Shown: one piece after another, positions 7,513 through 30,370 of the stretch
Layout of the letters: the number at the start of each line of letters is the position of its first letter
Numbering within the stretch: the first letter of the stretch is position 1
NCBI GenBank assembly: GCA_029258925.1
Contig: JAPDJV010000009.1
Location: 3,256-67,255 of the forward strand
Source of the DNA: Thermoproteota archaeon
GTDB taxonomy: Archaea; Thermoproteota; Thermoprotei_A; EX4484-217-1; JAPDJV01
Length of the DNA: 64,000 nt
Direction of reading: 5' to 3'
The notes under the pieces: model-generated
What the model was told of the DNA's origin: nothing
What the model saw: only the letters and a program-made list of their open reading frames with translations
Database searches by the model: none
Made by a program: the position numbers and the translations under genes

Positions 7513-8691
7513 TTAAAGTCCTCCGTCTAGTAATGTTTTGTCTGCTACTTGAAGCGCGTTAAATGCTCTAGTCGAAGTTATAACCTCGTGGCTCAGCAGG
7601 ATGCTTGATATTCCTGTAAGCGTTAATATTACTTCCTTCCTCCCAATCCAGCCCATGTTACCTAGTCTAATCATTCTGTGTTTGAATTCCCCAATTCCCC
7701 TTGCAACACATATATTCCACTTTGTATAGAGTTCGTTGGAAATAGTGTTACTGTCAATGCTGTCTCCGGTCCAAAAGGCTATTACAGTGTTTGATCTGAA
7801 TTCTTCTCTCTTAGGTACAATGCTTAAGCCGAGCTCCTTAAGAGCATTGTAAAATGCCTGGGCACATACCCTATGTCTATGGATTCTTTTATCTAACCCC
7901 TCTTCTAATATCATGCTAGTTGCCTCGTCTAGTGCATAGAATAGTGGTATTGCAGGCGTGAATGGTGTTTCCTTTCTTTCATAGAACTTATTTAATTTGG
8001 AGAAGCTGAAGTAGTAGCACACGGTATTCTTAGCTTTATTCTCGGCAATCTTCAACGCTTCGTCGCTTACGGAAATCATTGAAAGCCCGGGCGGGCAGGC
8101 TAGACATTTTTGGCTTCCTGTTACAACTATGTCAAGCTTCCATTCGTCGACTGGTAAAATATCTCCTCCTAATATTGAGACGGCATCAACTATTGTCAAC
8201 AACCCCCTCTTCTTTGCTTCCCTTGAAATTAAAGGAAGAAGCCTATTAGTTACACCCGTAGACGTCTCGTTATACACTATAAATATTGCCTCTGCATCTC
8301 CACTCTCATCAAGTGCCTCTTTCACTTTTTCAAGAGGCGGAACATCGCCGACCTCTGATGATAAAACTATAGGTATTCCACCATAAACTTCAATTTTCTC
8401 TCTAATTCTCTTACCGAACTCTCCGTACACTAACACTATGTACTTTCTACCCTTTTCCACAATATTAGCAATAGACGCTTCCACTCCCCCAGTACCAGAG
8501 GAAGTTAATATGAATATCTTGTTCTCTGTTTTGAATATTTTCTTTAATTTTGCTTCAACTCTCTCATAAATTTCCTTGAAATCTCCTGATCTATGGCTTA
8601 TCATGTGTCTAGTCATTGCTGAGAGCACTCTATCTGGGACTTCAACAGGTCCGGGTGTCATGAGTAGTCTTCTCTTGATCATGGAGGACAC
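7513..8691 (-). CDS. class V aminotransferase (AGXT/SGAT-type, PLP-dependent)
   Basis: 392 aa; LMTPGPVEVP N-terminus, TGSQKCL Lys region; fold type I. Confidence 0.8.
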   Translation of the reverse strand: MSSMIKRRLLMTPGPVEVPDRVLSAMTRHMISHRSGDFKEIYERVEAKLKKIFKTENKIFILTSSGTGGVEASIANIVEKGRKYIVLVYGEFGKRIREKIEVYGGIPIVLSSEVGDVPPLEKVKEALDESGDAEAIFIVYNETSTGVTNRLLPLISREAKKRGLLTIVDAVSILGGDILPVDEWKLDIVVTGSQKCLACPPGLSMISVSDEALKIAENKAKNTVCYYFSFSKLNKFYERKETPFTPAIPLFYALDEATSMILEEGLDKRIHRHRVCAQAFYNALKELGLSIVPKREEFRSNTVIAFWTGDSIDSNTISNELYTKWNICVARGIGEFKHRMIRLGNMGWIGRKEVILTLTGISSILLSHEVITSTRAFNALQVADKTLLDGGL

Positions 8692-8751
8692 CGACTAATT
8701 ACTTTAAATAATTAGGTGAGTTAGATAATTGTTGAGTGATATTTATACTAA

Positions 8752-9570
8752 GTGGTGTTAACTATGATAATAGCTTTGCTTACGGATTTCGGTAACGTGG
8801 ACACCTATGTTGCCTCTATGAAATCTGTGATCACCTCTATTAATCCCAGCGCTAGAATAATTGATGTAACTCACGAAATACATAGTTACAGTATTAGGGA
8901 GGCTGCATTCAAACTATTTTTAGCTAAGAAAGATTTTCCTAAGAAAACAATTTTTGTTGTTGTGGTGGATCCAGGTGTTGGCACGAAGAGGAGGCCGTTA
9001 CTAATAAAAACTAAGACCCATTATTACGTTGGACCCGATAATGGCGTGCTCTATGAGGCTGCTAGTAGTGATGGGATTACATCTATTTACGAGATAATTA
9101 ATAGGGACTTCTACTTAAAGCCCACATCCAATACATTCCATGGAAGAGACATTTTTGCTATTACGGCAGCCTGGATAAGCATAGGTACGCCTCCCTCTCT
9201 CCTGGGGAAACCTGTAAGAGAAGACGGTATAGTGAGACTCAAAGTACTGGACTACGATTATTCTGAAAAGGAGATTCGCGGCAGAATTATCTGCCATGAT
9301 AGGTTCGGAAACATCCTAACTAATATCCCATTTAAGGAAGTAGAATGGTTAAAATATGGTAAGGAGTTTATCGTGGAATCGAGTGGGGAAAAATATTTGT
9401 GTAGATTTGTCAGAACATTTCAAGAACTGGAGAGGGGAGAACTGGGTATTATAGTTGATAGTTACGGGTTTTTGGAAATAGTATCGAACATGGAATCTGC
9501 CGTGGAAATATCAAAGTTTAGAGAGGGAGATCCCCTGAGAATAAGGCCTCTTAACAAGCTCGCGGGGTGA
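8752..9570 (+). CDS. SAM hydroxide adenosyltransferase (DUF62, fluorinase/chlorinase-like)
   Basis: 272 aa; LTDFGNVDTYVASMKSV ... VVVDPGVGT ... HGRDIFA signature of the DUF62 family. Confidence 0.75.
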   Translation: MVLTMIIALLTDFGNVDTYVASMKSVITSINPSARIIDVTHEIHSYSIREAAFKLFLAKKDFPKKTIFVVVVDPGVGTKRRPLLIKTKTHYYVGPDNGVLYEAASSDGITSIYEIINRDFYLKPTSNTFHGRDIFAITAAWISIGTPPSLLGKPVREDGIVRLKVLDYDYSEKEIRGRIICHDRFGNILTNIPFKEVEWLKYGKEFIVESSGEKYLCRFVRTFQELERGELGIIVDSYGFLEIVSNMESAVEISKFREGDPLRIRPLNKLAG

Positions 9571-9576
9571 GCATCT

Positions 9577-10113
9577 ATTAGGGGTATATATATTGGGAGA
9601 TTTCAGCCTCCCCATAAAGGTCACATGATGGTGATCAAGAGACTTGTCGAAGAAGTTGACGAACTAATCATAGGCATTGGGAGCGCTCAATTAAGTCACA
9701 CCATTGACAATCCATTTACAGGGGGAGAGAGGGTGTTAATGATGAAGGAAGCATTAATAGAGTATGAAGTGGACTTGTCTAGAGTCTACATAATTCCCGT
9801 ACCCGACATAGAAATGAACCATGTGTGGCCTCGATACGTTTCACTGCTTACCCCTCCTTTCGATGTAGTGTTCTCCGGCAACCCTCTTGTGAAAAGACTT
9901 TTCATGGAGTCAGGGTTTACTGTTAGGACTCCACCATTCTTTAATAGAGAAGTATATAGTGGTAAGAAGATTAGGAGGCTGATGCTGGAGAGTGGGGATT
10001 GGGAACAATATGTTCCCAGCAGTGTCGTTAGGGTGATTAAGGATATTAGAGGGGTTGAGAGGTTAATCGAGATATGTAAATCAGACGAGGTCTTCGAGGG
10101 GGATGGTAAGTGA
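9577..10113 (+). CDS. nadM: nicotinamide-nucleotide adenylyltransferase (archaeal NadM type); no canonical start, putative AUU/AUA initiation or readthrough from the upstream gene
   Basis: (I)RGIYIGRFQPPHKGH...IGIGSAQLSHT...SGNPLV matches archaeal NMNAT such as MJ0541. The essential HxGH motif lies upstream of the first ATG (9625), and there is no ATG/GTG/TTG in frame after the TGA at 9568-9570. Confidence 0.7.
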   Translation: MRGIYIGRFQPPHKGHMMVIKRLVEEVDELIIGIGSAQLSHTIDNPFTGGERVLMMKEALIEYEVDLSRVYIIPVPDIEMNHVWPRYVSLLTPPFDVVFSGNPLVKRLFMESGFTVRTPPFFNREVYSGKKIRRLMLESGDWEQYVPSSVVRVIKDIRGVERLIEICKSDEVFEGDGK

Positions 10114-11177
10114 TCGTTATTGATGGGAGTATGGGAGAAGGAGGAGGACAGATTTTGAGAACGAGCATTGCACTATCTGCGCTAACTATGACACCAATAA
10201 AAATAGTTAACATAAGGGCAAAGAGGAGAAATCCAGGACTTGCTCGCCAGCACGTAACAGTAGTTAAAGTGATCAAGGCTTTGACAAATGCTGACGTCCG
10301 GGGCCTCGCCTTGAGATCGAAGACCTTGGATTTTTATCCTAGAAAAAGAGTATCGGGCTCCTTTAAGTTTGATGTTGGAACTGCAGGCAGTATCCCCCTA
10401 ATATTGCAGGCAATACTTCCCGTCATGGCTTTAGCTCCGGGTCCGATAAACTTAACTATTATAGGTGGAACCGATGTGCCGATGAGTCCCCCCATAGACT
10501 ACATAATCAACGTTTTTTTACGATACTTGAATAAAATGGGTTATTATCCATCAATAAGCATTGTTAGGAGAGGCCATTATCCTAGGGGAGGAGGTATAGT
10601 TCAGGTTGTATCTAAACCTATTGAAAAATTAACCCCGCTGAATTTGATTCGTAGGGGTAGAGTAGTAGAGATTAGAGGAAGGTCCCACTGTGTAAAACTT
10701 CCATCTCACGTAGCCGAGAGACAGGCATCATCCGCAAGTAGGATATTGAGGGAAGCAGGCTATAGGAACATATCAATAGATGTCGAGTACTATCCGCCTG
10801 AAAAAGACCCTCATCTAGGCCCAGGTAGCGGCATAGTACTGTGGGCGCTAACTAGTAATGAAAGTGTGCTGGGAGCTGATGCATTAGGAGCTAGGGGTAA
10901 GCCTGCCGAGGTTGTTGGAAGAGAGGCTGCTACTAAGCTGTTAGAAGAATTGAAGTCTGAGCAAGCATTAGACTCTCATTTAGGAGACATGATTATCCCG
11001 TTTCTGGCTATAGCCGATGGGATGTCCATCGTAGGTACTTCAAAATTAACTCTCCACACCATAACTAATATTGAGGTTGTAAGGTTGATTCTCGGAGTTA
11101 AAGTGGAGGTTACGGGATCTCTGGGTGAGCCGGGAATAATCAAAGTTGAGGGATTAGGAACTGCTAGCATTAAATGA
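10110..11177 (+). CDS. rtcA: RNA 3'-terminal phosphate cyclase
   Basis: 355 aa; IDGSMGEGGGQILRTSIALSAL N-terminus and the RtcA fold. Confidence 0.85.
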   Translation: MIVIDGSMGEGGGQILRTSIALSALTMTPIKIVNIRAKRRNPGLARQHVTVVKVIKALTNADVRGLALRSKTLDFYPRKRVSGSFKFDVGTAGSIPLILQAILPVMALAPGPINLTIIGGTDVPMSPPIDYIINVFLRYLNKMGYYPSISIVRRGHYPRGGGIVQVVSKPIEKLTPLNLIRRGRVVEIRGRSHCVKLPSHVAERQASSASRILREAGYRNISIDVEYYPPEKDPHLGPGSGIVLWALTSNESVLGADALGARGKPAEVVGREAATKLLEELKSEQALDSHLGDMIIPFLAIADGMSIVGTSKLTLHTITNIEVVRLILGVKVEVTGSLGEPGIIKVEGLGTASIK

Positions 11178-23869: not shown

Positions 23870-23978
<109 letters not shown>

Positions 23979-24042: not shown

Positions 24043-24828
24043 ATGGTCTTCAGAGGAGAGCTGATATTCTTAGGGCTTGGACTGTACTCGGGCCATTTGA
24101 CGTTAGAAGCGGTCAACGAGCTGAAGAGAGCTGACATAGTTTACCTTGAACTATACACTGGAATCTACGAGGATGCTGATTATCTCGAAAAACTCGTAGG
24201 AACGGAGAAGATAGTTCGCCTTTCGCGTAAAGAGTTGGAAGAGGAGAATGGCGACATAATAATGGAGAGCTTGAAAAATGGTTTAAGAGTTGTTTTAGCA
24301 TCTCCGGGAGACCCATTCATAGCAACATCTCACCAAGCACTTAAAATAAGGGCTATGCGAGAAGGATTCAAGGTCAGAGTAATCCACGGTCTGTCTATTT
24401 TAAGTGTTGCAGTAAGCGAGTCAGGTCTTTTCTCTTATAAATTCGGGAAATCTGCAACTATTGTTTACCCTAAGGATGGTATAGTATATGAGTACCCATA
24501 TCTTGTTTTAGAAGAAAACATTAGTAGAGGTCTTCACACCCTCTTCCTCTTAGAAATTGATGTAGATCAGAATATGCTCATGACGGCCAATGAGGCCATG
24601 GAGATAATGTTGGAATTAGAGAGGGCTAGGGGGAAGAAAATATTTACAGAGAACACTATGCTCGTAGTGCTGGCAAGAGCTGGAACACCAAATAAATTAG
24701 TGAGAGCTGGTAGGGTGGGGGAGCTCTTAAAAACAGATTTTGGGCACCCTCCACATACAATTATTGTACCAGGTAAGCTACACTTCATCGAGGAGGAGGC
24801 TCTCAGGACTATAGGAGATGGTGTTTAA
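24043..24828 (+). CDS. dph5: diphthine synthase
   Basis: 261 aa; FLGLGLYSGHLTLEA N-terminus and the tetrapyrrole-methylase fold typical of DphB. Confidence 0.8.
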   Translation: MVFRGELIFLGLGLYSGHLTLEAVNELKRADIVYLELYTGIYEDADYLEKLVGTEKIVRLSRKELEEENGDIIMESLKNGLRVVLASPGDPFIATSHQALKIRAMREGFKVRVIHGLSILSVAVSESGLFSYKFGKSATIVYPKDGIVYEYPYLVLEENISRGLHTLFLLEIDVDQNMLMTANEAMEIMLELERARGKKIFTENTMLVVLARAGTPNKLVRAGRVGELLKTDFGHPPHTIIVPGKLHFIEEEALRTIGDGV

Positions 24829-25529
24829 TGGCTACTGAAAGCTTTGAGAAGAGGAAAGAGAGATTAGAGAGCTACATTAATGCTCTATCAAAAGTGTTCG
24901 ACACGCTTAAAGACAAAACCTTAACTGAAGTGGATAAGAGACTAGTAGATATAGCAAGGTCATACTTAGAAGATGCAATATATTACATGGAGAAAGAAGA
25001 TATCGATACAGGGCTTATATGCGTATCATATGCAGAGGGACTTCTAGACGCGCTCAGATTTCTGGGGAGGATTTCATTTGAATGGAGGAAAAGGAAGCCG
25101 ATGCGAGTAGCTCTTGCTGGAACATTTGATATAATACACCCAGGCCACGTATGGTTGATAAGTGAGGCAGCTAAACTAGGAGATCTAACCATCATAATAT
25201 CTAGAGACGTAACCGTAGAAAGAATTAAAGGTCATCCACCAATCAATTCTGAAAACCAGAGAGCCTATGTTGTTTCGAGAATTAAAGGGGTTCGTAAAGT
25301 GGTATTAGGTGATAGAGAAGACATTCTCATACCTATTCTAAGAATTAAACCAGACATATTGGTTCTAGGCCCTGACCAGAACGTAGACGAGGAGGAGTTG
25401 AAGAAAAAGCTTGCCGAAAGAGGGCTGCGCGATGTTAGAATCGTTAGAATAAGGAGTAAATTCGAAGATTTCGAGAACTGTAGCACGAGTAAGATAATAG
25501 AGAGAGTATTGTCGCTCTACTGTAAGTAA
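24828..25529 (+). CDS. ribL: FAD synthase RibL (cytidylyltransferase-like) with an N-terminal helical extension
   Basis: 233 aa; the C-terminal half has AGTFDIIHPGH (HxGH nucleotidyltransferase) and ISRD; archaeal RibL family. Confidence 0.65.
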   Translation: MATESFEKRKERLESYINALSKVFDTLKDKTLTEVDKRLVDIARSYLEDAIYYMEKEDIDTGLICVSYAEGLLDALRFLGRISFEWRKRKPMRVALAGTFDIIHPGHVWLISEAAKLGDLTIIISRDVTVERIKGHPPINSENQRAYVVSRIKGVRKVVLGDREDILIPILRIKPDILVLGPDQNVDEEELKKKLAERGLRDVRIVRIRSKFEDFENCSTSKIIERVLSLYCK

Positions 25530-30282: not shown

Positions 30283-30370
30283 GCCGGGGTGACCGAGTGG
30301 ACTAAGGTGCCGGCCTTGAGAGCCGGTGGTCCAGTGGACCGCGCGGGTTCGAATCCCGCCCCCGGCGCCA
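30283..30370 (+). tRNA. tRNA-Ser (anticodon UGA), long variable arm, encoded CCA
   Basis: Hand-folded. Acceptor GCCGGGG/CCCCGGC, anticodon arm CCGGC-CTTGAGA-GCCGG, extra arm GGTCCAGTGGACC, T-arm GCGGGTTCGAATCCCGC. Confidence 0.85.

Follow-up and report, generated by a model that had tools for sequence, protein, structure and literature searches.

Where does translation of an enzyme begin when the codons for its catalytic motif lie upstream of the first canonical start codon? This question is raised by nadM, the gene for the archaeal nicotinamide mononucleotide (NMN) adenylyltransferase (NMNAT), on contig JAPDJV010000009.1 of a Thermoproteota archaeon, of which a stretch of 64,000 nucleotides (nt) was analysed as a whole (hereafter the window; all positions are counted from its first letter). 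The gene follows SAM_HAT (DUF62), which encodes a protein of the S-adenosylmethionine (SAM) hydroxide adenosyltransferase family, and only a TGA separates the two reading frames. The original prediction for this junction had offered three options, namely initiation at AUU, readthrough of the TGA to give a SAM_HAT-NMNAT fusion, and a sequencing error or recent mutation. Based on homology, comparison of orthologous loci and independent assemblies of the junction, we propose that in this uncultured, heat-loving archaeon the likeliest start of nadM is ATT, a codon rarely used for initiation, preceded here by a strong ribosome-binding site.

Results

nadM is predicted to encode a complete NMN adenylyltransferase

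The frame that follows the SAM_HAT stop reads GCA TCT ATT (9577-9579) AGG GGT ATA TAT ATT GGG AGA TTT CAG CCT CCC CAT AAA GGT CAC ATG (9625), which translates to A S I R G I Y I G R F Q P P H K G H M, and no in-frame ATG, GTG or TTG occurs between 9571 and 9624. SAM_HAT and nadM lie in one frame, split only by the TGA at 9568-9570, and the HxGH nucleotide-binding motif is encoded entirely upstream of the first ATG; on all three points the original prediction had read the junction correctly. Products that start in the region of ATG 9625 lack strand beta-1 together with HxGH, and it is only as such shortened calls, P0001 (161 aa, MVIKRL...) and P0121 (162 aa), that the public protein collection carries nadM.

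Read from ATT, the 178 codons of nadM are predicted to encode a complete archaeal NMN adenylyltransferase that is a clear member of its family. The product scores 243.9 bits against TIGR01527 (cut-off 181.2), covering profile positions 1-166 of 167, and 250.1 bits against PRK01153 (cut-off 127), and it matches the PDB entries 4yp7, 1ej2 and 1f9a with E about 1e-63 over residues 1-170. These alignments extend to the very first codons: position 1 of the TIGR01527 profile falls on residue 2, ATT corresponds to profile position 1-2 in both TIGR01527 and PRK01153, and residue 1 aligns with Met1 of MJ0541 (1f9a) and with M4 of 1ej2 (M. thermautotrophicus), in agreement with the proposal that ATT occupies the position of the methionine of the homologues. 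Like the archaeal NadM proteins of known structure (MJ0541, 1ej2) and the TIGR01527 family, with which it shares ~55-60% identity, the product is full length, of the same size, and harbors both the N-terminal GRFQPxHxGH and the C-terminal SGxxIR motifs. It differs from MJ0541 and 1ej2 in that its gene lacks an ATG, GTG or TTG start and in that its public calls drop the active-site motif.

An alignment of 12 sequences, of which the nadM product itself is one, contains 67 invariant columns, and all 67 are intact in nadM, including those of the N-terminal motif (G7, R8, F9, Q10, P11, H13, G15 and H16) and of the C-terminal motif (S128, G129, I132 and R133). Eleven of the invariant residues (R2, G3, Y5, G7, R8, F9, Q10, P11, H13, G15 and H16) are encoded upstream of the first ATG, and HxGH is present in every homologue inspected, shorter ones included. 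Across the 178 codons we found no internal stop, no frameshift and no lost invariant residue, the lesions by which a pseudogene would be recognized.

A run of 18 codons without a start is not improbable alone, its chance at the local base composition being ~0.4 by a rough estimate. The unusual part is that homology reaches the codon right after the stop and thus leaves no room for a canonical nadM start. In ten other genes of the window the frame is also open for a long way upstream of the first start codon, and the Pfam domains of all ten begin after that codon; the missing start is therefore a peculiarity of nadM and not a property of the genome.

ATT is preceded by a Shine-Dalgarno-like motif at the usual spacing

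The last codons of SAM_HAT and its stop contain the Shine-Dalgarno-like motif GGGGTGA, and ATT begins 6 nt after it. The motif would be able to pair over ~7 positions with the 3' end of crenarchaeal 16S rRNA, which we take to be ...GAUCACCUCA (the 16S gene lies outside the window). The same signal is reused throughout the window, where 17 candidate starts (ATG, GTG or TTG) of long open reading frames (ORFs) have GGTGA 4-10 nt upstream, with a mode of 5 nt. SAM_HAT itself has GGTG (8754-8757) 6 nt before its ATG, as read by eye. Upstream of nadM in relatives, the arrangement is GGTGA-6 nt-ATG (locus L009), AGGTG-6 nt-ATG (L018) or GGGTG-6 nt-TTG (L016). Conversely, the only Shine-Dalgarno-like string near ATG 9625 is, by eye, GGTCA (9619-9623), which at a distance of 1 nt is unusable.

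ATT is found in five independent assemblies

The junction GGGGTGAGCATCTATTAGGGG, ATT included, is carried by each of five assemblies: Logan SRR22064146, Logan SRR21024894, ENA ERZ25515786, ENA ERZ25515408 and JGI Ga0180301_10126485. Four of these, which derive from different runs and different assemblers, are identical over 101 nt of the junction, and the fifth (ERZ25515408) ends at 9584 and still includes ATT. Single-nucleotide polymorphisms (SNPs) elsewhere define three haplotypes among the five, all of them with ATT, and the JGI contig differs by 6 SNPs in 1539 bp (0.39% divergence); the assemblies are thus not copies of one record. A search of JGI metagenomes with a degenerate DNA pattern (any 9 nt between GGTGA and AGGGG) returned only one contig in addition to the Logan and ENA ones, and this also has ATT.

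Strain variation extends into both genes. The nadM product carries F121I (position 9937) in L002 and L003 and I31V (9667) in L094, both conservative changes, and L094 also carries V247M (9502) in SAM_HAT. The SNPs between strains are too few for a ratio of nonsynonymous to synonymous substitution rates. Across the sampled sites, the source organism is represented by at least three haplotypes.

A canonical start is conserved in orthologous loci

From a set of prokaryotic genomes with one representative for each species, to which the source genome itself does not belong, 80 orthologous loci were obtained, the nearest of them from uncultured 'Desulfurococcales archaeon' metagenome-assembled genomes (MAGs) at 61-67% identity. 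In 79 of 79 loci with the GRFQPxHxGH motif, an in-frame ATG, GTG or TTG is situated 6-12 codons before the motif glycine, and nadM of the window is the sole exception to a canonical start among the orthologous loci compared.

The eightieth locus (L021; NJED01000003.1, Desulfurococcales archaeon ex4484_217_1) lacks ~70 nt at 1380-1560 relative to L012 and L020. In it, the 3' end of SAM_HAT (...KYGDKV) runs straight into nadM near codon 11 (PPHLGHIYVISK...), with a change of frame. The stretch that is gone comprises the stop of SAM_HAT as well as the start of nadM and its codons for GRFQ, whereas the remainder of nadM is intact. The gap may be either a real deletion or a misassembly.

The SAM_HAT-nadM-rtcA cluster

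The features of the region are collected in Table 1. SAM_HAT, nadM and rtcA are co-directional in the region 8600-10400, and the rtcA GTG overlaps the nadM TGA by 4 nt, as GTGA at 10110-10113. The gene order SAM_HAT-nadM-rtcA is kept in relatives, including the six nearest (seen in L006-L013), so that the prediction's proposal to look at orthologous loci is answered in favor of neighboring genes and against fused ones, each nadM having an ATG, GTG or TTG of its own. The cluster as a whole (8764-11177) is common to all Desulfurococcales-like relatives examined, its junctions overlapping or nearly abutting; beside it, a NOG1-type GTPase gene lies on the opposite strand in most relatives, and TFIIB in the closest ones. 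No functional reason for grouping a SAM hydrolase, an NMNAT and an RNA cyclase is known to us.

Table 1. The SAM_HAT-nadM-rtcA region and its junction elements (window positions)
Feature	Positions	Strand	Remarks
SAM_HAT (DUF62), first operon gene	8764..9570	+	start ATG 8764 (alternative GTG 8752), stop TGA 9568-9570
Shine-Dalgarno-like GGGGTGA	9564..9570	+	inside last codons plus stop of SAM_HAT
Out-of-frame mini-ORF	9567..9581	+	GTG AGC ATC TAT TAG (M S I Y stop)
ATT, proposed non-canonical nadM start codon	9577..9579	+	
nadM, archaeal nicotinamide-nucleotide adenylyltransferase	9577..10113	+	178 codons plus TGA
H-K-G-H codons, HxGH nucleotide-binding motif (H13-K-G-H16)	9613..9624	+	upstream of first ATG
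ATG ATG, first canonical starts, used by public gene callers	9625..9630	+	products 162 or 161 aa
rtcA, RNA 3'-terminal phosphate cyclase, third cluster gene	10110..11177	+	Pfam RTC 262.9 bits from residue 8

The SAM_HAT protein matches the Pfam domains SAM_HAT_N (173.8 bits) and SAM_HAT_C (66 bits) and resembles SAM hydroxide adenosyltransferases and (R)-SAM hydrolases, scoring below cut-off on the (R)-SAM hydrolase equivalogs. Its C-terminus stops at the usual end of its homologues (P0124).

Other features of the window

A second gene of the nucleotidyltransferase fold is found in the window at 24828-25526 (+), and encodes a DUF357 domain joined to a cytidylyltransferase-like one. It was rejected as a second NMNAT on the grounds that it falls below every NCBIfam cut-off and has no match to NMNAT models, its best scores being 74.5 bits to rfaE domain II and 47.8 bits to the archaeal PPAT subfamily.

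Rfam families in the window are limited to two tRNA hits. The first, at 23870-23973 (+), is 104 nt long, scores 50.1 bits and is absent from the ARAGORN output; it is possibly an archaeal tRNA with an intron. The other, at 30283-30370, is tRNA-Ser(TGA).

Discussion

Probable initiation at AUU

We consider it reasonably probable, on the strength of sequence comparison, that a Shine-Dalgarno motif directs initiation of nadM to AUU, which of the three options in the original prediction is the best supported: ATT is at the methionine position, GGGGTGA precedes it by 6 nt, and the motif is reused in the window and in relatives. In the mechanism that we propose, nadM would be the intact, functional second cistron of the conserved SAM_HAT-nadM-rtcA operon. 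Pairing of the 16S rRNA 3' end with GGGGUGA (9564-9570) would position the 30S subunit such that AUU 9577 lands in the P site at the organism's normal spacing, where the initiator Met-tRNA would read it via two of three base pairs to give a protein that begins MRGIYIGRFQPPHKGH... Ribosomes terminating on SAM_HAT may, across the 6-nt gap, contribute to nadM initiation. Initiation at AUU is probably weak, and such inefficiency would be tolerable for a low-abundance housekeeping enzyme.

This proposal is not without precedent. For the Asgard tubulin AtubA, ATT was deduced to be the start codon by the same kind of argument, homology continuing upstream beyond the first canonical start, and a ribosome-binding site lies at a suitable distance from it (PMC13394414); nadM resembles atubA in placing a near-cognate AUU behind a spaced ribosome-binding site. 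Ribosome profiling in Haloferax assigned near-cognate codons to ~30% of newly detected putative initiation sites (PMC7261190), and Sulfolobus 30S initiation complexes bind an AUU mRNA in the absence of aIF1 (PMC4705826). With the bacterial genes infC, which encodes initiation factor 3 (IF3; PMC4705826), and pcnB, nadM would share the AUU-initiated class, having no canonical start between the upstream stop and the required N-terminus and an ATT at the methionine position behind a spaced ribosome-binding site. The likeness to infC has its bounds: there IF3 regulates its own synthesis through an AUU that is conserved, whereas the AUU of nadM is seen in one species-level population and has no obvious regulatory logic, and the corresponding fidelity factor for nadM would be aIF1, which disfavors AUU in Sulfolobus.

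The junction also resembles those of translationally coupled operon genes (PMC6728339; PMC10666635): its Shine-Dalgarno motif lies within the 3' end of the preceding gene, 6 nt intervene, and the following junction of the cluster is GTGA. Coupling requires overlaps or very short gaps (PMC10666635). The SAM_HAT-nadM junction differs from GTGA and ATGA coupled junctions in that its GTG, which overlaps the SAM_HAT stop, and nadM are in different frames, so that the in-frame codon available for use would be AUU.

Several points weigh against initiation at AUU. First, in the Sulfolobus system AUU is disfavored by archaeal aIF1 (PMC4705826), and a review of archaeal initiation gives only AUG, GUG and UUG as start codons (PMC7531240). 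Second, the Shine-Dalgarno motif would also persist had the start codon only just been lost. Third, a protein search for relatives between 67% and 100% identity returned nothing, and there is no genome at 67%-99.6% identity; retention of ATT is seen only at ≤0.4% divergence, within one species-level population, and the next relatives, at most 67% identical, start nadM with ATG, GTG or TTG. This gap in identity leaves room for a recent, tolerated change. Lastly, the nearest relative in which nadM shares the SAM_HAT frame (L018) has an ATG two codons upstream of an ATT of its own (Ile3), and for this reason the ancestor of the ATT in the window may have been an isoleucine codon and not an ATG that mutated.

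A possible recent loss of the start codon

We regard as unlikely the explanation that a point mutation, or the insertion of 1 nt behind an ancestral GTG overlapping the SAM_HAT stop, has recently deprived nadM of its canonical start, and that the gene is now poorly expressed or not expressed at all. The locus would then be an incipient pseudogene or yield a truncated, inactive product from ATG 9625, and the organism would depend on residual expression, another enzyme or salvage of nicotinamide adenine dinucleotide (NAD). In its favor is a feature outside the three options of the original prediction, a four-codon ORF whose GTG (9567) overlaps the SAM_HAT TGA as GTGA (9567-9570), exactly as the rtcA start overlaps the nadM stop, and whose TAG (9579-9581) overlaps ATT. 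Removal of one nucleotide from this mini-ORF would give MSIIRGIYIGRFQ (MSIIRGIY...), which may be compared with MSIKSEGRGLY in L009 and MTIRGIY in L018. If a nucleotide was indeed inserted behind such an ancestral overlapping start, nadM may have become a pseudogene very recently, or leaky initiation at AUU may sustain it. Recent loss also accords with a state seen in only one of about 80 orthologous loci, with the absence from L021 of ~70 nt that include the nadM start, a hint of damage to the 5' end of nadM in the clade or in its assemblies, and with a strain divergence (≤0.4%) too small to show decay.

Several observations argue against it. NMNAT is essential, being needed for all NAD synthesis, and we found no second NMNAT in the 64-kb window. 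The allele is common to five samples and three haplotypes, and the gene has no second lesion and keeps all invariant residues. In addition, nadM is unlikely to be wholly silent, given a strong Shine-Dalgarno motif suitably spaced from a near-cognate codon. Of the third option of the original prediction, the sequencing error is contradicted by five assemblies and three haplotypes, while a recent, tolerated change of ATG to ATT or a small insertion or deletion may have taken place.

A hypothetical relay through the GTG mini-ORF

Improbable in our estimation is a route in which ribosomes initiate at GUG 9567 by termination-reinitiation at GUGA and then reach the nadM frame by a +1 shift at UAG or by reinitiation on AUU. 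In the variant with a shift, Ser-Ile-Tyr would be read and UAU UAG G taken as UAU-AGG, to give MSIYRGIYIGRFQ... The geometry invites the idea, as the NMNAT frame is exactly +1 to that of the GTG, the stop codon UAG would occupy the A site at the shift point, and the same GTGA overlap is used at the nadM-rtcA junction. A GUGA overlap of 4 nt is described as the commonest coupling geometry in archaea and bacteria (PMC6728339).

Several observations speak against such a route. No counterpart of the mini-ORF is conserved in any relative, and GUG 9567 has no upstream Shine-Dalgarno motif of its own. Established +1 sites, CUU UGA C of prfB (with a Shine-Dalgarno at 3 nt) and UCC UGA U of antizyme, also have a stop codon in the A site. 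The junction resembles them in its +1 frame relation, in the stop at the would-be shift site and in the Shine-Dalgarno-like element upstream, but by inspection tRNA-Tyr is unable to re-pair on AUU after a slip from UAU, the element lies 5 nt from UAU rather than at the 3 nt that stimulates the shift in prfB, and the arrangement lacks conservation. A stimulatory structure is likewise missing from the region, the junction RNA folding no better than shuffled sequence (z = -0.34).

Equally hard to credit, in our view, is the stronger form of this idea, in which nadM would be obligatorily relayed from SAM_HAT translation via the GUG mini-ORF, by the +1 shift or by two termination-reinitiation events of which the last ends on AUU. 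If true, the mini-ORF relay would amount to a recoding or coupling device in archaea by which NAD synthesis is made to depend on translation of an enzyme that cleaves SAM. A further reading would be a regulatory AUU that reads aIF1 fidelity as infC reads IF3.

Proposed readthrough of the SAM_HAT stop

We judge very improbable that programmed or leaky readthrough of UGA 9568-9570 gives a SAM_HAT-NMNAT fusion of ~449 aa as the active NMNAT. What speaks for it is the common frame of the two ORFs, with a single TGA and then two sense codons between them. This frame relation is not maintained among relatives: relative to SAM_HAT, nadM is offset by 2 in L007 (11-nt overlap, ATG), 1 in L009 (GGTGAATAGGTATG), 1 in L012, 0 in L016 (TAG TTA TTG), 0 in L018 (TGA AAA ATG ACA ATT AGG) and 2 in L020, and every one of these genes has its own ATG, GTG or TTG. 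With offsets that vary in this way, a shared frame in the window is a one-in-three chance outcome.

A collection of 5.8 billion proteins was searched for fusions with a concatenated SAM_HAT-W-NMNAT query, and the 8000 candidates that shared most words with it were scored. Not one of these 8000 combines PF01887 with PF01467; NMNAT-only proteins fall outside the 8000 scored, and a true fusion is expected inside. One long match, P0133 (431 aa), was rejected as a fusion, being a tandem SAM_HAT. TGA is an ordinary stop in the window, where it ends 21 of 63 long open frames, nadM included, and the sole tRNA gene detected there by ARAGORN is tRNA-Ser(TGA). A fusion would also put 270 residues directly onto strand beta-1 of NMNAT, an enzyme that crystallizes as a hexamer. 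With frame offsets, separate starts, the fusion search, the unremarkable RNA folding and the ordinary use of TGA all pointing the same way, the readthrough option of the original prediction is not supported, and its argument that adenosyl and adenylyl transfer make a fusion plausible finds no comparative backing.

The probability that ATT is a sequencing or assembly artefact and that the true genome has ATG is negligible, as the general prior that MAG sequences carry errors is set against five assemblies and three haplotypes with the same junction, in which no long homopolymer occurs.

Implications

AUU-initiated genes are already a known, if rare, class, and nadM is a natural candidate for it in a thermophilic archaeon rather than a new type of system. 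Truncation of its public calls has consequences of its own. These calls drop the HxGH active site and provide an example of gene callers removing the catalytic motif of an enzyme, and automated metabolic reconstruction could as a result misrepresent the protein or predict NAD auxotrophy in error. Should AUU indeed serve as the start, nadM would be one of very few archaeal essential enzymes that rely on a start other than AUG, GUG or UUG, and its use would bear on the stringency of start selection under aIF1 in vivo at operon-internal cistrons led by a Shine-Dalgarno motif.

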